NCBI GenBank assembly: GCA_002688015.1
Contig: NZBT01000011.1
Location: 1-59,921, forward strand
Source: Candidatus Pacearchaeota archaeon
GTDB taxonomy: Archaea; Nanobdellota; Nanobdellia; Pacearchaeales; GW2011-AR1
Direction of reading: 5' to 3'
DNA length: 59,921 bases
The position numbers and the translations under genes were made by a program. The notes below the pieces were generated by a model that ran no database searches, was not told the origin of the DNA, and worked only from the letters and a program-made list of their open reading frames with translations. This document shows positions 5,210 through 56,463 of this stretch, piece after piece. Positions within the stretch are counted from its first letter, which is position 1. The number at the start of each line of letters is the position of its first letter.

Positions 5210-5332
5210 GATCCTGTAGCTCAGCCTGGTTAGAGCGCTGCTCTTATAAGAGCCCTGTTCGATAGAACAGAAACTTTCAAGCTAAAAAGCTAAGAAAGGC
5301 AGAGGTCCTGGGTTCAAATCCCAGCAGGATCA
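5210..5332 (+). tRNA. tRNA-Ile(UAU) with a 48-nt intron at 37/38 (5249-5296)
   Basis: Acceptor stem GATCCTG/CAGGATC, T arm CTGGG-TTCAAAT-CCCAG, anticodon TAT at 5245-5247, BHB central helix CTTA/TAAG. Confidence 0.92.
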
Positions 5333-19674: not shown

Positions 19675-20202
19675 TCACTCTTTCTTTTCTTCCTTAGGGG
19701 CGGCTTCTTCCTTCTTTTCTTTAACCTTAGCTTCTTCCTTTGGAGCTTCCTTTTCTCCCTCAGCTTTCTCTTCTGCTGGAGCTTCCCCTTCTGCTACAGG
19801 CTCAGCCTTCTTAGTTAAATCTTCCCACTTTTTACTTCCTTCTTTAACAACATTAAAATTAATCTGTACCGTCTTCTCAAAAACAGTATTTCCTCTAACT
19901 GTCTTTCTAAGACGAAGACCATCAGGCTGTGGAACTTTCTTCTTATCTCCTCTAGGACGCTTCTGCATTCCCCATCCTTTTGTTAACAAAACTCTTTTGA
20001 GCGTTATCCCCTCAACATCTTCCTTCATAGCAAATCCAGCAAAATCAGTTCCTCCAGTAATCTTTAACTCATATCCAGATAAATCAGCATTAATTTCCTC
20101 TCCCTTAATTGTATCTCCTACCTTCTTTCCAGATAACACTTCTGGCTCTATCTCTACCTTATACGCTTTTCCCTTATTACTTATATTCAATTTTAATACC
20201 AT
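19675..20202 (-). CDS. rps6e: 30S ribosomal protein S6e (eS6)
   Basis: GYELKITGGTDFAGF, GLRLRKTVRGN, QIN. Confidence 0.95.
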   Translation of the reverse strand: MVLKLNISNKGKAYKVEIEPEVLSGKKVGDTIKGEEINADLSGYELKITGGTDFAGFAMKEDVEGITLKRVLLTKGWGMQKRPRGDKKKVPQPDGLRLRKTVRGNTVFEKTVQINFNVVKEGSKKWEDLTKKAEPVAEGEAPAEEKAEGEKEAPKEEAKVKEKKEEAAPKEEKKE

Positions 20203-20506
20203 ATCATTCTCTCAGAAAAACTGGGTTTTTAAATCATTCTGTTAGAAAATAAGATTATCGGTTAATCGGTCAGGCTAGGCGAACTTTCCTTTAGGAAAGT
20301 TAGGTCAAATATTGATTTCCTACAAAAGGAAAAACTTTTGGAAAAAGTTAGATATTTGCCGTCTAGTGGGCATTAACCGAGTCACGAAGTGACCTCTTGC
20401 TGTGAACACAGAACCAAGAGTCTTATGCTTCGTTCTCAGCCGGATTTTTAGCGTAATTGTTGTCTTCTTTCTTTAGGGGGGCTGGCTCCTGTCTTTGTTA
20501 TAATGC

Positions 20507-21220
20507 CTATTTAGAATCCAAGATTCTATAAAATAAATTTGCATACATCTCAGATATCTGTTTTGATTCTATCAGATATCCAACCGGTTTTTCTCCCCAA
20601 GAAAAAATAGCTACTTTATCATCAACTATTGCAATACCTTCTGGAATTGGTAGTTTTGTAAACTTCATTTTGATATTTTTTCTTATTTTCATATGTTTCT
20701 TTACTTCTTCGGAAGCAAGTCCTTGTACAATTATTCCTTTTTCTTGCCTCTTAGCATCATATCGTGAAAAAAATTCTTGAATATCTTCGTTAAATTGATT
20801 TATGTTTAATGAAAAATAAAGATATTTATCTCTCTTACTAACATTTTCAATGAGGATATTCAGCATAGAGATAACTCCTTTTTTTCCTTCAAAAATCTCC
20901 GCTTCTTGCCTATCATCAGAAGATTTCTGTGTTGATTCTAACTCTGGAATTATAGAGATCAATTTTTCTTTTTTGATTTCTAGAAAATCTATCAAATGTT
21001 TAGGATTGATTGCCTTGTAATGTTTTATTTTTCCCCTTTTAATATATGAAATAAGGCCTTTTTCAACAAGAGCATTTATTGAATTATGAACTGCAGAACT
21101 AGCCATGCCTGAATTTTCTATCACTTCCCCAACCTTTACATCTCCCAATTTTAATAGGGCTAAATAAACCTTTATTTCTCCCTGGCTAAGGCCAAGTTCT
21201 TCTAACGCTTGAGTATTCAT
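20507..21220 (-). CDS. TrmB-family transcriptional regulator
   Basis: LEELGLSQGEIKVYLALL winged HTH, LVEKGLI, EIFEGKKG, C-terminal PLD-like effector domain. Confidence 0.9.
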   Translation of the reverse strand: MNTQALEELGLSQGEIKVYLALLKLGDVKVGEVIENSGMASSAVHNSINALVEKGLISYIKRGKIKHYKAINPKHLIDFLEIKKEKLISIIPELESTQKSSDDRQEAEIFEGKKGVISMLNILIENVSKRDKYLYFSLNINQFNEDIQEFFSRYDAKRQEKGIIVQGLASEEVKKHMKIRKNIKMKFTKLPIPEGIAIVDDKVAIFSWGEKPVGYLIESKQISEMYANLFYRILDSK

Positions 21221-21256
21221 GATATAAAAAGAAAACTTGCATTTATAATACTATCT

Positions 21257-21284
21257 ATTAACTCTCCATATTTAGAGAGTTAAT
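21257..21284. promoter_or_regulatory. Perfect 10-bp inverted repeat, probable TrmB operator between divergent TATA boxes
   Basis: ATTAACTCTC-N8-GAGAGTTAAT. Confidence 0.65.
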
Positions 21285-21439
21285 CTTTATAAGGATAATT
21301 TCTAATTATAATCTTAACTAAAGAGTAGTAATATACTCTAAGGAAAACAAAATGACAAACGAACAAAACACAAGAGAAGGCACAAAAGAAAGCCAAACAG
21401 AACTTCCTATTCAAAATAATGAAAGGAGGATAAATCAAA

Positions 21440-21856
21440 ATGACAATTGAAATACCAGAAATAGGTCTTTATAGAGAATGTGATTTTACTGGTGGGTGGC
21501 ATTCGTTGGAAGCACTTAGTGGCCTTGAATTATCAGTTAATCCAAGTTATAATGGTAAATTTGTAGTTATGGGAAATGATGTAATGAATAGTATTATAGG
21601 TTTAGAATCCATCAATCCAAACACACACCTATACAACGATATACCTCATGCACATATTGCAAATATGTTTCATTCAATGCATGATAATTGGAAATACCAT
21701 GCTACTGGCGGGGGACATGTCAAAATTGAAGATGGTAGAATTATTCTAAGTGGGACAGGCGATTTTTGTGGCAAATATGATATGCAAATTGTAAGGCCCA
21801 TTATAGAGAGATTTGTTTCTATGACTCCTCGATTGGAGAGGGTGGTTGTAGAATGA
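21440..21856 (+). CDS. Hypothetical protein, possible Janus/Ocnus (PHPT1 phosphohistidine phosphatase)-like fold
   Basis: GKFVV..PHAHIA..GGGHVKI..IILSG....GKYD; SD AGGAGG upstream. Confidence 0.5.
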   Translation: MTIEIPEIGLYRECDFTGGWHSLEALSGLELSVNPSYNGKFVVMGNDVMNSIIGLESINPNTHLYNDIPHAHIANMFHSMHDNWKYHATGGGHVKIEDGRIILSGTGDFCGKYDMQIVRPIIERFVSMTPRLERVVVE

Positions 21857-22602
21857 TAATCCCAAAAGAAAGTCAATCAGATTCAAGGACTGAAAAAGAG
21901 AAAGTTGTAGATGGAGCTATGGGTCACAGACAAGATAGAGGAATGACTAGGGAAGCAATTAGACAGAAGTTATCTAAATTTGACTCAATAGAACAAATGT
22001 CAGCTTATGTTGATAAGTTTGTAGATGGAATAAGAGAATATCGGCTGCCTGAGGAAACAAGATATAGACTTTTTAGAGAAGCTTTTAATCTGGGTTATAA
22101 ACCACCTAAGAAATTTCAAACTCATATAGAAAATCATTTTGATATGTACAATAGTGTATTTCAAGAAAAATTGGAAGATTTTGATTTAGGAGCACTTATA
22201 ATCGCAAGACAAAATCATCATAGCAATATAAGGTCTGGACCTCTAAGGGACCAAAGAGAGAATTTTGTAGATGAAACATTTAAAAAAATAAATTCAATAC
22301 CTTTGGGTTCTTCAGAAAGACCAGAACGACTTATAACTCTTGTTGAAAGCACAAGGAGAACTGACTTAAGAACAAAAATATTAAATAGCGCATTGAAAGA
22401 ATTCAGATTTATATCTGATGAGGACGAACAAGATTCATTTAGGGATTTTTTTAGAGAAATTTATGGAATAGGTCAATGTATCTCCTACCTTGAAAAAGAT
22501 GAGATAGAGAGAAGAAAAAACGTTGCTACTAAAAAACTTAGGGAACATAAGTTTTCAGAGGAAGACATTTATAGATTTATTGAAGAGGATAAGGAAAGAT
22601 AA
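21853..22602 (+). CDS. Hypothetical alpha-helical protein
   Basis: 249-aa ORF with an ATGA overlap with the upstream gene. Confidence 0.7.
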   Translation: MIIPKESQSDSRTEKEKVVDGAMGHRQDRGMTREAIRQKLSKFDSIEQMSAYVDKFVDGIREYRLPEETRYRLFREAFNLGYKPPKKFQTHIENHFDMYNSVFQEKLEDFDLGALIIARQNHHSNIRSGPLRDQRENFVDETFKKINSIPLGSSERPERLITLVESTRRTDLRTKILNSALKEFRFISDEDEQDSFRDFFREIYGIGQCISYLEKDEIERRKNVATKKLREHKFSEEDIYRFIEEDKER

Positions 22603-22960
22603 AAATAAGATAATTAAAGAACTAACAAATTAACTCGCTCGGCGAGACTATCTGTCGCAAAGCGATTTAAGCCAGCCCCTGTCTTTCTACAACAATTTCG
22701 TTTAAGCAAGCGATTGTGCGACAATTTTTAATTTAGCACTCCAGCGGTTAAGCGGAGCTAAAAATCCATTCAATCACAAAGAATATTGTGATGATATTTG
22801 GGCTGAGAATTGCGTCGCCAAAAGGGCAGGGGACGGGGATCAATTTCTTTGAGGGGACGCAGCAACCCCGAGTGTAACGAGAGGCAAAGCATAAGTTTGT
22901 TTAATGTACCTTAAACGCCCTTTTGGTGTTTAATGTCGAGCGCAATCGGCGCTTCGCGCC

Positions 22961-23785
22961 TCAATTTATTGCAGCTAATGTTCTTTGTTTGCGGGACGGG
23001 AAATTATCAAAGGATGTAATATTATCAAAACCAAATTGAAAATAGGTTTGAACAGGATTTTCTGGTATGGAAAAACCATTCATACGAGAAAAAGTTTTAA
23101 TTTTTCTATAGAATGAATTAGCAATTCTACGAAAATCTCCATCCGAATTTAGAATTCTAACTGGAGTCTCATAAGATAATGCAACTGATTTAGCAAAAAT
23201 TATCGCATCATTTTTATTAGAACTTAAAATTTGACTTTCCCTTTTTTTTGATTTTGGATTAACTAAACATACTCCTGGTAACCTAGAAATGTACAATGCT
23301 GCTTCTTTTAAACCTTCTAAATCATCTGCTCTATCTTCAGGAATATAATCATCAACAGAAACTGAAAAAGATCTTGCTTTAAGCTCTCTTAAAAATCCTG
23401 TCTTTGCTTCAGCAAGCCCAAGCATGTTATCAGATCTTTGCAATAACTCTGCCCTAGTTCCTCCAAAATAGGGATTTCCACTTGTGCAACTAGACCTAAA
23501 TCTATTAGCACCTACCCTTCCAATTTTTCCAGCAAAATCTATAAGTCCTCCACATCCAGTAACAAACTCATCCCATGTTTCAGACGCAATAAAAAAGTTC
23601 TCTGGAAATAATTGATGAGCTTTTGAATAGAAATTTCTTTCCCTGTTTAACCTTAAATCAATAGGAAGGGCGGAGTCAATATATCCAGTTGCCAAATTAG
23701 CTATGAAAGACAAGTCTGTAACTACAAACCCATCAAAATCAAAGGCCTTTTCAATAGCTTCCCTAATAGATTCTTCTATACCCAT
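22961..23785 (-). CDS. PIN-like domain protein
   Basis: VVTDLSFI, ETWDEF and NDAIIFAKSVAL..ILNSDGDF give PIN-like acidic spacing. Confidence 0.55.
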   Translation of the reverse strand: MGIEESIREAIEKAFDFDGFVVTDLSFIANLATGYIDSALPIDLRLNRERNFYSKAHQLFPENFFIASETWDEFVTGCGGLIDFAGKIGRVGANRFRSSCTSGNPYFGGTRAELLQRSDNMLGLAEAKTGFLRELKARSFSVSVDDYIPEDRADDLEGLKEAALYISRLPGVCLVNPKSKKRESQILSSNKNDAIIFAKSVALSYETPVRILNSDGDFRRIANSFYRKIKTFSRMNGFSIPENPVQTYFQFGFDNITSFDNFPSRKQRTLAAIN

Positions 23786-23817
23786 CAAAATTTAGAAATA
23801 TGAAGCTTTTTAAATCT

Positions 23818-25548
23818 TCACATTCCCCAATCATCATCTTTTTTTCTTTTAATCTCAGCAATTTCTTGCAAAACCTTCTTCTCTCCTTCAGAAAGCAATT
23901 CCTTATTCTTTTTGAAGTCACGGAACTGTTTCGCTGAAATATTTGCATACAAATATTTCTTGTCTTTCAATCTACGTTCAAAATTAGTTCCTGGAAGTGA
24001 AACAGCCAGTTCTTTCCCTTCTTCTGCGGAATCCACAGATTCTTTATCCAACTGCAAATCTTTAACTCTTGCAACGGAATCACCAGTTTCATCAATTAGC
24101 TCCGTGTTTTTCACAATTTTTCCATTGGAAACACGAACACCAAACACAGCAGGATTACTATTCCTAAACACATATTGAGGCAAAATCTCAAGCTTACATA
24201 TCGTTGCGAGTCCAAGCATCTTTTCCCTTTCAATTTCTTCCTGCTTTTCCTTTCTCCACTTCTGTAAATCCTCAATTAATTTGTAAACAACTTCATCTCT
24301 AAGAACAACAACTTTCCCCGGGGCTCCCAGGTCTTCATCAACATCAACATTAAATCCAACTATTACAGCATCCAGTTCGTTTATCTCCAAATTTGCCTTC
24401 GCACTAATCATATCTGTTTTTCCAATTGGTCCGATTCCCGCCTTTACAACCTTTACTTGCTCTTGTCTTAACAAAGTCAATAATGCTTCCAAGCTCCCCA
24501 ATGAATCTGCTTTAACAATAATGCCTTGCTTATCTAACTTTATTTCCCCTGAAATTTCCTTCTTGAACTCTTTTTCAATTTCTTTTATGTTTCCCTTCAC
24601 AACTTGGAAAGGCATTCCTGAAAGAACATTTTCTTTGTTTGTCAATTGCAATCTCAATCCTGTAGCAGCACTTGCTTCTTTCTTACTCTTATACCTAAAA
24701 CTTAAGCTCTGTATTTCCTCCAAAGCTCTAACTTTCGTCTCTATAATAGAATCAAATGAAGCAATAGCAATTTCATCCCCTTCAGACAAAGTTCCATCAA
24801 ACAATATAGTTTCAATCTTCTCCCCACTTTTTTCCTTCCTAACTTCTAAAACAACTCCTTTCCCAGTCTCCCCTAATTTCAATCTTTCTTTCAAATACTT
24901 TTCACTTAATCCAGAAAGAACAAACAAAAGTTCTGGAATTCCTTCTTTTGTCTTAGCAGAACAAGGAACAATAGCAACTTTCTTGCTAAAGTCGGAAATC
25001 TCCCAATACAAATCAGATTCAAAACCATGTTCTTGTAAAGCTCCTTGGAAAGTCAATAAACTCTCCTGAAATTCCTGTGAAACATTTATCGCCTGGCTTT
25101 CCACACTTTCTTTCACCGAATCCCTCTTTTGCCATCCGCTAATTGTATCAACCTTGTTTAAAGCAATCAAAAATGGAGTCTTTGAATTCTTCAATATCTG
25201 CAAAACTTCCGCTGTCTGTGGCTTTATTCCTTCTTTAACTGAAACAACCAATATTGCTAAATCTGCTAAGCTCCCTCCCCTTTTCCTTAAATTTGTAAAT
25301 GCAGCGTGCCCAGGAGTATCAATAAACAAAAATCCAGGAATTTCCAATTTGAAACCACTAGATTCAATCAAAGGACTAGCTTTCTTTATCTGTTCTAAAG
25401 GATATTTAGTAAAACTAATCTTCTGAGTTATTCCCCCACTTTCTCCTTCTTGTACCTGTGTGCCCCTAAAACAATCTAATATGCTTGTCTTTCCATGATC
25501 CACATGCCCGGCTACAGTAACTATTGGCTGTCTTATTTTGCTTTCCAT
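23818..25548 (-). CDS. infB: Translation initiation factor aIF5B (IF-2)
   Basis: RQPIVTVAGHVDHGKT, DTPGHAAFTNLRKRGG, KADSLGSLEAL, VFRNSNPA. Confidence 0.97.
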   Translation of the reverse strand: MESKIRQPIVTVAGHVDHGKTSILDCFRGTQVQEGESGGITQKISFTKYPLEQIKKASPLIESSGFKLEIPGFLFIDTPGHAAFTNLRKRGGSLADLAILVVSVKEGIKPQTAEVLQILKNSKTPFLIALNKVDTISGWQKRDSVKESVESQAINVSQEFQESLLTFQGALQEHGFESDLYWEISDFSKKVAIVPCSAKTKEGIPELLFVLSGLSEKYLKERLKLGETGKGVVLEVRKEKSGEKIETILFDGTLSEGDEIAIASFDSIIETKVRALEEIQSLSFRYKSKKEASAATGLRLQLTNKENVLSGMPFQVVKGNIKEIEKEFKKEISGEIKLDKQGIIVKADSLGSLEALLTLLRQEQVKVVKAGIGPIGKTDMISAKANLEINELDAVIVGFNVDVDEDLGAPGKVVVLRDEVVYKLIEDLQKWRKEKQEEIEREKMLGLATICKLEILPQYVFRNSNPAVFGVRVSNGKIVKNTELIDETGDSVARVKDLQLDKESVDSAEEGKELAVSLPGTNFERRLKDKKYLYANISAKQFRDFKKNKELLSEGEKKVLQEIAEIKRKKDDDWGM

Positions 25549-39081: not shown

Positions 39082-39171
39082 TGGACCCGGAGAGAATCGA
39101 ACTCCCGACTTCTGCTGGCTCTCCGCTTAAAGGCGCTGGAGGCAGGTATTATACCATTTAACTACGGATCC
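39082..39171 (-). tRNA. tRNA-Trp(CCA) with a 19-nt intron (39117-39135)
   Basis: Acceptor GGATCCG/CGGGTCC, anticodon CCA, relaxed BHB helix CTCC/GGAG, T loop TTCGATT. Confidence 0.88.
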
Positions 39172-56287: not shown

Positions 56288-56463
56288 AGCCACTACCGGG
56301 AATCGAACCCGGGACCTCTACATATTCACTATATCAAAGGAAGGTGACCTATTATGGAAAACTTCAATCTCGTTTTGAGTTGGAGTTCCAGAGAGTAAAA
56401 CTCTCTAGGACCTTGATTTCATATAATACCAATGTAGCACTCTACCGGCTGAGCTATAGTGGC
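56288..56463 (-). tRNA. tRNA-Thr(GGU) with a ~103-nt insertion in the anticodon loop (56324-56426)
   Basis: Acceptor GCCACTA/TAGTGGC, U73, anticodon stem CTACA/TGTAG, T arm CCGGG-TTCGATT-CCCGG. Confidence 0.88.

Follow-up and report, generated by a model that had tools for sequence, protein, structure and literature searches.

Why do infB and rps6e, which adjoin each other in some relatives, stand 3.6 kb apart in a Pacearchaeota genome, and what is the block between them, whose two non-coding ends are complementary to each other? We addressed this question in a 59,921-nt stretch of DNA from Candidatus Pacearchaeota archaeon (positions 1 to 59,921 of contig NZBT01000011.1, assembly GCA_002688015.1; hereafter the window). 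The source genome, labelled G000, has 592 kb in 18 contigs and is 82.7% complete. Positions 20254-22937 of the window probably represent one copy of a non-autonomous, integron-like gene cassette that is recombined in trans and that we infer to be mobile; we put the probability of this reading at roughly 0.55. A preliminary description, made from the letters of the window, had already proposed a non-autonomous unit with exchangeable cargo that is acted on in trans and folds as a single strand. This proposal stands, given the recurrence of the flanks, the covariation of their helices and the recombinases found in relatives.

Anatomy of the cassette

The order of the parts was derived by comparing solo, internal and last units. 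On the + strand of the window it reads core, M domain, small hairpins, left tract, cargo, right module with the hairpin R1, and core again. The non-coding parts are as follows.

20254-20268, + strand: left junction, with the core GGTTAAT at 20260-66; homology with internal array junctions in other genomes begins here
20257-20381, + strand: M domain, a five-helix element closed by TCGGTTAAT/ATTAACCGA (20258-66/20372-80); candidate recombination site and analogue of the attC site of integron cassettes
20381-20421, + strand: two small hairpins, GTCACGAAGTGAC and CTCTTG...CAAGAG, between M and the left tract; seen in folds
20422-20500, + strand: left tract (L), which supplies the 5' strands of six helices formed with the right module
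22610-22905, + strand: right module (R), the 3' strands of the six helices with local hairpins between them; terminates in AAGCATAAGTTTGTTTAAT
22679-22772, + strand: R1 hairpin, with outer stem TTCGTTTAA/TTAAGCGGA, inner stem and conserved loop; 77.8 bits with the R1 model
22898-22937, + strand: right junction, with the core GTTTAAT at 22899-905, a 10-nt direct repeat TGTTTAATGT at 22898-907 and 22926-935, and CTTAAAC between the copies

The multibranch domain had been described as a separate thing. The boundary of the unit, however, lies to the left of this domain, and M is therefore part of the cassette. The right module could be aligned up to the core with its homologues in genomes G073, G095 and G137. 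The G137 homologue also has counterparts of both small hairpins, and the motif AGTGACCTC is common to the window, which belongs to subfamily B of the cassette family, and to subfamily A.

At the right end, ACCTTAAACGCCCTTTTGG is the stretch flanked by the two TGTTTAATGT copies (22898-22935). In our reading, this junction may be a reduced, M-like terminal site. Terminal flanks of this sort stand after the last cassette in G073, G095, G137 and metagenome contigs. The preliminary description had seen no target duplication, but a short core does recur at both ends of the unit (GGTTAAT at 20260-66 and GTTTAAT at 22899-905). As a separate observation, in metagenome contigs L228 and L237 the last cassettes are followed by short terminal hairpins like those of the right junction.

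Complementarity of the two ends

Seven complementary pairs had been listed for the block, namely six long-range pairs between the left tract and the right module and the pair that closes M (20258-66/20372-80). All seven proved to be exact reverse complements. Between 20401-20510 and 22601-22910, exact complementary blocks of 7 nt or more could be chained in nested order to a best total of 55 nt. None of 2000 shuffles of the left tract reached this value (mean 10, max 29), and it was reached by 1 of 20000 random genomic segment pairs with the same spacing (mean 11.9); the direct-orientation control gave 14. A permissive dynamic-programming zipper aligner was too loose (136 for the window vs a shuffle mean of 107 and a maximum of 141), and exact-block chains were used in its place. 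The longer complementary blocks are single-copy in the 592-kb genome.

Both flanks were then joined by a 4-A linker, and the minimum free energy fold of the + strand was computed with RNA parameters. Four of the six proposed helices formed (TTCTCAGCC, GGATTTTTAGC, AATTGTTGT and GGGGCTGGCT), whereas the outermost (CTTATGCTT) and the innermost (TTTGTTA) were absent. The structure is branched, as had been claimed, because the gaps on the right side do fold into local hairpins.

Nested complementarity between a left tract and a right module was present in 15 of 30 loci when up to 1.4 kb upstream was scanned; the left tract of the window, located 2.2 kb upstream, was recovered by a wider search. 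In subfamily B, helix H2 (TTCTCAGCC/GGCTGAGAA) is almost invariant. H1 occurs in three variants and H4 in five, all of them complementary, and H3 varies with partial compensation. The covariation that the preliminary description had named as support was thus found in H1 and H4, and also in R1 and M (see below). In an array of genome G083, two neighbouring cassettes have different left and right sets, which are matched within their own cassette and not across the junction. Because the variants differ yet match within their own cassette, the left and right partners must meet on one single strand. Judged from these sequences, the left/right complementarity is under selection. Such a meeting can span the cargo, or it can be local, through M, when the cassette is an excised circle. 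Of the giant fold that had been proposed around the cargo, the pairing is real, but it may be a local fold of the excised circle, where right module, M and left tract are contiguous.

R1 and M as conserved structured elements

The survey set consisted of 150 other genomes of the same taxonomic family. A covariance model of R1, built from an 80-nt core that right-flank blastn had found in four other genomes, matched 24 of the 150, sometimes with 2-3 matches per genome. R1 was also present in 24/24 further tested loci from records titled Woesearchaeota, Pacearchaeota, Nanoarchaeota or Nanoarchaeia. An 18-base pattern also matched many bacterial records; about 50 chance matches were expected (estimate), and these records were set aside. 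The R1 model confirmed 0/3 viral pattern matches and 0/3 pattern matches from Candidate Phyla Radiation (CPR) bacteria. The cassette family occurs in metagenome-assembled genomes (MAGs) titled Woesearchaeota, Pacearchaeota or Nanoarchaeota.

In the alignment of 44 distinct R1 homologues, which was fitted to the model and thereby favours structure, 95.8% of cells were paired and 11 of 17 pairs had compensatory changes. No shuffle out of 500 reached these values, and slid controls gave 38-49% pairing. The + strand is the folding strand of R1, because 107 G:T oppositions were counted on it vs 5 A:C. One U-G was retained in 41 of the 44 sequences.

The model of M (model R2) scored 122 bits for the copy in the window (E = 1.9e-25) and matched 18 of the 150 genomes. 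For the seven subfamily-B copies, a five-helix consensus of 49 pairs, predicted on the same alignment that was used for its covariation count, had 95% pairing and 28 compensatory pairs; 0/500 shuffles reached this, and pairing in slid controls was 36-50%. M of subfamily B leans to the same strand as R1 (19 G:U-type vs 6 A:C-type oppositions, own count). M of subfamily A is a hairpin with the stem base AAC...GTT, invariant in 18/18 sequences. RNAalifold gave no consensus on the gappy alignment, and this structure was named by hand; in it, covariation is seen in the outer positions and in the second stem, which has TTAA at its centre. Compensatory changes affect 14 of 21 pairs, and pairing amounts to 76.9% of cells vs 68.8% in shuffles (0/500 reach the observed value).

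When the window was searched against Rfam with cmscan, tRNAs were the only matches at the gathering threshold, and for 20150-23050 no credible match appeared up to E = 10, as the preliminary description would have predicted. Likewise, Rfam families including group I/II introns, HEARO/omega RNAs and ribozymes had no match in 19 related loci. On comparative sequence grounds, R1 and M are two new, well-supported structured elements absent from Rfam, and their covariation makes them convertible into search models at once.

Arrays, junctions and linked recombinases

M is present in several copies in some relatives (up to 8 in G070, 7 in G073 and 4 in G137), which form same-strand clusters with a spacing of 0.9-4 kb. 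The tandem units in these sister genomes stand head to tail. At internal junctions, the end of the right module is followed by the core and then directly by the next M, with the sequence ...GGTTAATC / N3-4 CAGGCTAAAAGAAC. The subfamily-B array junction reads ...AAAGCAAAAGTTTGGTTAATC / N3-4 CAGGCTAAAAGAAC, and most of 26 metagenome contigs continue in this way. In last units, the end of the right module and the core are followed by a short terminal site or, in subfamily A, by a recombinase gene. The subfamily-A boundary would lie after ...GAACAT, at the 5' AAC arm.

A gene for a tyrosine recombinase of 262-275 aa, on the same strand, starts 110-260 nt past the end of the right module in 5 of 31 R1 hits, and a recombinase lies within 2.6 kb in 3 further hits. 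The co-occurrence with tyrosine recombinases suggested in the preliminary description is thus observed in relatives (8/31). One of the five genes is disrupted. The recombinase gene at G088:C4:60898-61718, which stands beside an R1 element, is broken by several stop codons. The array-linked recombinases are XerA-type, with 203-244 bits against NF040815 (two of three over the 220-bit cut-off). Array-bearing subfamily-A genomes have 1-4 full-length copies of the recombinase, and G088 has fragments too. The source genome has a single XerA gene (C8:41080-41889), which is unlinked to the cassette and has no module beside it.

Cargo

The cargo of the cassette in the window consists of three genes.

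20507-21220, - strand: TrmB-family winged-helix regulator (Pfam TrmB, E = 3.6e-14)
21440-21856, + strand: 138-aa open reading frame (ORF); no match in Pfam, PHROGs or PADLOC
21853-22602, + strand: 249-aa ORF, ending 77 nt before R1; no match in Pfam, PHROGs or PADLOC

In PHROGs and PADLOC, the TrmB-like protein had only weak winged helix-turn-helix matches. Family scans of the cassette ORFs detected no enzyme gene inside the cassette. In relatives, a + strand ORF lies directly upstream of R1 in at least 17 of 30 loci. The ORFs adjoining R1 are mutually unrelated and form no cluster. Among ten R1-adjacent ORFs that were scanned, there were two GNAT acetyltransferases and a ParE-like toxin with its DUF7557 partner, and the other six had no family; by eye, many further R1-adjacent ORFs are small membrane proteins. 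The flanks thus recur as a pair around different cargo (15/30 loci), as expected of the exchangeable cargo that had been proposed.

The ParE-like toxin/DUF7557 module was found in arrays of two genera and two subfamilies (L082, positions 435-924, of G075; L100, from G095:C10), with 67% and 87% identity. Chromosomal proteins are less alike across the family (39-57% for rps6e and 45-66% for infB). That the identity of the toxin pair exceeds that of chromosomal proteins would fit an exchange of cassettes.

Chromosomal setting

Outside the cassette, the following features are relevant to its setting.

19675-20202, - strand: rps6e (ribosomal protein S6e), the left chromosomal neighbour (Pfam Ribosomal_S6e, E = 1.2e-27)
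22936-22975, no strand assigned: conserved GC hairpin with tail (GAGCGCAATCGGCGCTTCGCGCC...TATTGCAGCTA), outside the cassette; conserved at the nucleotide level in G001, G010, G019 and G137
22961-23788, - strand: 275-aa ORF that starts with TTG and separates the cassette from infB; no family match in Pfam, PHROGs or PADLOC
23818-25548, - strand: infB (aIF5B), the right chromosomal neighbour (Pfam GTP_EFTU, IF-2 and GTP_EFTU_D4)

To the left of the left flank, the genes for eIF2-gamma, two small ORFs and rps6e follow each other, all on the - strand. From the left flank onward, the order is TrmB regulator (-), 138-aa and 249-aa ORFs (+), right flank, 275-aa ORF (-) and infB (-). In relatives, the end of infB was 35-121 nt from the start of rps6e in 8 of 29 rps6e loci and 286-1340 nt in 11; in the other 10, infB was not found inside the fetched stretch. 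Because the two genes are adjacent in relatives and 3.6 kb apart here, the block between them appears as an insertion at a variable spot. The earlier view of the block as an insertion is supported by the adjacency in these 8 loci. The G+C content is 0.42 and 0.45 in the flanks, 0.31 in the cargo and 0.31-0.35 in the genome. The 275-aa ORF had no tblastn match at E <= 1e-5 in the rps6e loci of relatives (0/29), and it may be a further inserted gene.

The GC hairpin at 22936-22975 may mark the insertion site. In G000, G010 and G137 the hairpin (GAGCGCAATCGGCGCTTCGCGCC) adjoins a cassette end; G001 and G019 have it in the absence of a cassette. Upstream of rps6e, G010 has a small unit (L019, G010:C34, positions 1020-1420) that bears R1 but contains no + strand ORF; its chromosomal place is that of the cassette in the window.

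Elsewhere in the window, tRNA genes with long insertions (introns) lie at 5210-5332, 39082-39171 and 56288-56463; Rfam detects them and ARAGORN misses them. The signal recognition particle (SRP) RNA (RF01857) was not found in the 82.7%-complete source genome, also when blastn was run with the SRP RNAs of four relatives. A full-length SRP RNA (~262 nt) is present in 48 of 60 relatives.

Proposed mechanism

The simplest account of these observations would be an integron-like system, in which M is the analogue of attC and an XerA-type enzyme acts in trans. A tyrosine recombinase would cut and join at the core, where the M hairpin has its 5' base, on a substrate that would be single-stranded. Circular cassettes would be excised and inserted as an integron integrase does at attC. 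In the source genome, the only candidate for this enzyme would be the product of the unlinked XerA gene on contig C8. In the excised circle, the left tract and the right module would be contiguous through M and could form one hairpin-like + strand fold of ~600 nt. When the cassette is integrated, this pairing would place its two junctions next to each other, which might be the role of the zipper.

A bolder extension, which we regard as doubtful, is that R, M and L together form a ~600-nt structured nucleic acid that serves the cassette's own mobility. The family would then be a second, archaeal integron-like lineage that relies on XerA-type recombinases, with a giant multi-helix site and a cargo-spanning zipper that joins the ends. 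In its boldest form, the ~600-nt element would be an RNA that processes itself, by cleavage at the junctions and circularisation of the cassette transcript.

Several observations weigh against the integron-like account. No movement was observed: no circle, empty site or second context of the cassette in the window was seen. Contigs of four marine DNA runs from four studies carry pieces of the cassette, some of which bridge flank and cargo without difference, and the circular or empty-site junctions that the preliminary description had suggested looking for had no supported joint among them. These contigs contained no supported cassette skip or back-joint, the listed joints having sides of <30 nt and the uncovered parts being no evidence. 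An exact 23-nt piece of M had 0 matches in a metagenome collection. The source genome has one M and one R1, hence a single cassette and no array. The enzyme is a further difficulty. The linked recombinases lack the IntI-specific domain and remain below the integron-integrase cut-off; against TIGR02249 (cut-off 265), the array-linked recombinases scored 187-192 bits and the XerA of the source genome 215, in two stretches that skip approximately model positions 180-237. Arrays of subfamily B, to which the window belongs, have no adjoining recombinase, and the nearest paralogue lies ~10 kb off in G095. The XerA proteins closest to that of the source genome (65-71% identity) are encoded on non-array contigs in 4/4 subfamily-B genomes that have one.

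The structures, too, are partly at odds with an attC-like site. The stem base of M in the window is TTAATC/GATTA (7/7 subfamily-B homologues), not RYYYAAC/GTTRRRY. The five covarying helices of M exceed the needs of attC and fit RNA, and the stems of subfamily-A M have no strand bias (22 G:T vs 19 A:C). In the zipper, the own-vs-other test for the innermost helix was weak (own partner best in 6/15; mean 19.3 on the diagonal vs 11.2 off it), and the interior mismatches (2 G:T, 0 A:C and 7 other) were too few to separate RNA from DNA. Three points thus limit the account: no movement was observed, the subfamily of the window has neither the AAC/GTT core nor a linked enzyme, and M is over-structured for attC. 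The feature itself is real, conserved and strongly structured, and it appears best filed with the integron-cassette kind in DPANN archaea, with a mechanism that we infer.

In the literature outside subscription journals, neither the zipper, R1 and a multi-helix M nor a linkage to XerA-type enzymes was found described. No full-text paper was found that ties Woesearchaeota to attC, and PMC9668308 was the sole find on DPANN tyrosine recombinases with gene cassettes. Gene gain and shuffling are poorly understood in DPANN archaea, which have tiny genomes and depend on hosts. The family provides a concrete, sequence-defined vehicle, namely enzyme-less units with matched structured ends, whose cargo includes toxin-antitoxin pairs, acetyltransferases, regulators and many small proteins of no known family. 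If it is true that an XerA-type enzyme moves these units, integron-like capture would need no IntI-specific domain, and archaeal attC clusters without an integrase would gain a candidate enzyme.

Alternative explanations

Right module, M and left tract could instead be parts of a large structured RNA, such as an untranslated region, a self-processing RNA or a non-coding RNA of its own that lies between cassette genes. The cross-cargo pairing would then process, circularise or stabilise the enclosed mRNA, in the manner of the processing stems around archaeal rRNA, and the cassette pattern at the DNA level would be secondary. We consider this unlikely, although it would explain why the wobbles of R1 are confined to the + strand (107 G:T vs 5 A:C, with one U-G in 41/44), why M keeps five helices with 28 compensatory pairs, and why the cargo ORFs are on the strand of the fold in at least 17/30 loci; the covariation of H1 and H4 also requires both partners on one single strand. 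However, in five subfamily-B loci TATA-like boxes (own reading) stand downstream of the left tract and ahead of the start codon, so that the cargo's own mRNA would lack the left tract, and in subfamily A a T-run precedes R1. The boxes and the T-run suggest that this mRNA does not span both partners. None of the sequencing runs listed for the stretch is an RNA run. Moreover, the gene that adjoins the left tract in the window is on the opposite strand, no Rfam ribozyme, intron or RNA family matched, no bulge-helix-bulge motif was seen by eye in the zipper, and an RNA would leave the array-end recombinase and the shared core unexplained. Alternatively, the cassette could exploit the host XerA/dif system or be a pdif-like module, with double-strand exchange at a dif-like core and with folds that are accessory or unrelated. 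The recombinases linked to the family are exclusively XerA-type, with NF040815 scores of 203-255 bits, three of the four lying above the 220-bit cut-off. The archaeal dif format is 11 + 6 + 11 bp, according to PMC2958812. The right junction is readable as 11-nt imperfect inverted arms with a 6-nt spacer (AGTTTGTTTAA TGTACC TTAAACGCCCT; 8/11 matching, own reading), and the stem arms of R1 resemble these arms. But the arms of the left junction are poor (5/10), the terminal site G095a has a 9-nt spacer, and the spacers of the two junctions differ (TCGGTC vs TGTACC). The covariation of M, R1 and the zipper further points to selection on within-strand pairing, which a duplex site does not need, and exchange between duplexes is quite improbable.

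The complementary blocks are also inverted repeats at the DNA level with no enzyme between them, as in decayed terminal inverted repeats similar to those of miniature inverted-repeat transposable elements (MITEs), or in a recent inverted duplication with hairpin insertions. The element is, however, single-copy in the source genome. A recent duplication is ruled out by the blocks, which vary from locus to locus while their complementarity is preserved. The arrangement of units in same-strand tandem arrays that share a junction also argues against transposon ends, as do the lack of a linked transposase in 30 loci (by ORF clustering, with some ORFs scanned against Pfam) and the lack of a target-site duplication of the usual kind. 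An origin of this type is very unlikely.

Three candidates from known RNAs were tried and rejected. An interrupted RNase P RNA was rejected, as the RNase P RNA is intact on contig C16, and so was an interrupted SRP RNA, as the flanks have no similarity to the 260-nt SRP RNAs of relatives. Copies of R1 located 1.9-3.1 kb apart and at contig ends had given the idea of ribosomal RNA (rRNA) processing stems; no rRNA or Rfam family was present in 12 such loci.

Comparison with known systems

In archaeal rRNA processing stems, as here, long-range pairing between flanks encloses a kilobase-sized insert on one strand. Unlike in these stems, the enclosed cargo is protein-coding and variable, no bulge-helix-bulge was seen, and 12 loci contained no rRNA. 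Parallels are also found among elements that use Xer recombinases. Integrative mobile elements exploiting Xer (IMEXs) include CTX phage, whose single-stranded genome adopts a forked hairpin in imitation of dif, and in the pdif modules of Acinetobacter plasmids the cargo is bracketed by inverted Xer sites. The cassette resembles both in having no recombinase of its own, in the use of a Xer-family enzyme in trans that we propose, and in tandem arrays at one site; the site of CTX phage, moreover, exists solely in the folded single strand. It differs from them in its archaeal host, in the lack of phage or plasmid genes and in far larger structured modules. A term search of a review of archaeal tyrosine recombinases (PMC8371274) gave no occurrence of 'IMEX', 'cassette' or 'DPANN'.

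The units also resemble those of integrons. Like integron cassettes, the units are enzyme-less and carry one or few short, diverse genes (toxin-antitoxin, acetyltransferases, unknowns), and each has one folded imperfect-hairpin site that, like attC, keeps its structure over its sequence. Like integrons and clusters of attC sites lacking integrases (CALINs), they form same-strand tandem arrays with a tyrosine recombinase at one end of some, most loci having no nearby enzyme. The stem base AAC...GTT of subfamily A resembles the attC R box (RYYYAAC/GTTRRRY), with the boundary at the 5' AAC arm of the + strand. In attC, the recombined bottom strand is cut at the position that corresponds to this arm. 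Unlike attC, M spans 125-180 nt, with several helices that are conserved and covary. In the window it does form a boundary hairpin, but the stem base is GGTTAAT/ATTAACC (TTAATC/GATTA in the subfamily of the window). In integron cassettes the ORF points to attC at its 3' end, whereas here M precedes the + strand ORFs and the right module follows them. The unit also has a mutually pairing left tract and right module of 250-300 nt and a second hairpin, R1. The linked recombinases, unlike integron integrases, are XerA-type and have no IntI-specific domain.

The preliminary description recognised the unit as no described family. Its logic nevertheless matches integron cassettes and attC, and integrons have already been reported in archaea (PMC9668308, Ghaly et al. 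2022). This paper reports integrons and CALINs in 75 archaeal MAGs, Nanoarchaeota among them, the IntIs having the IntI-specific domain, and it places this additional domain around patch III. It counts as an array two or more sites <4 kb apart on the same strand with short ORFs between them; such arrays with spacing <4 kb were found in relatives and not in the source genome. The Nanoarchaeota attCs of that study may include members of the cassette family described here.

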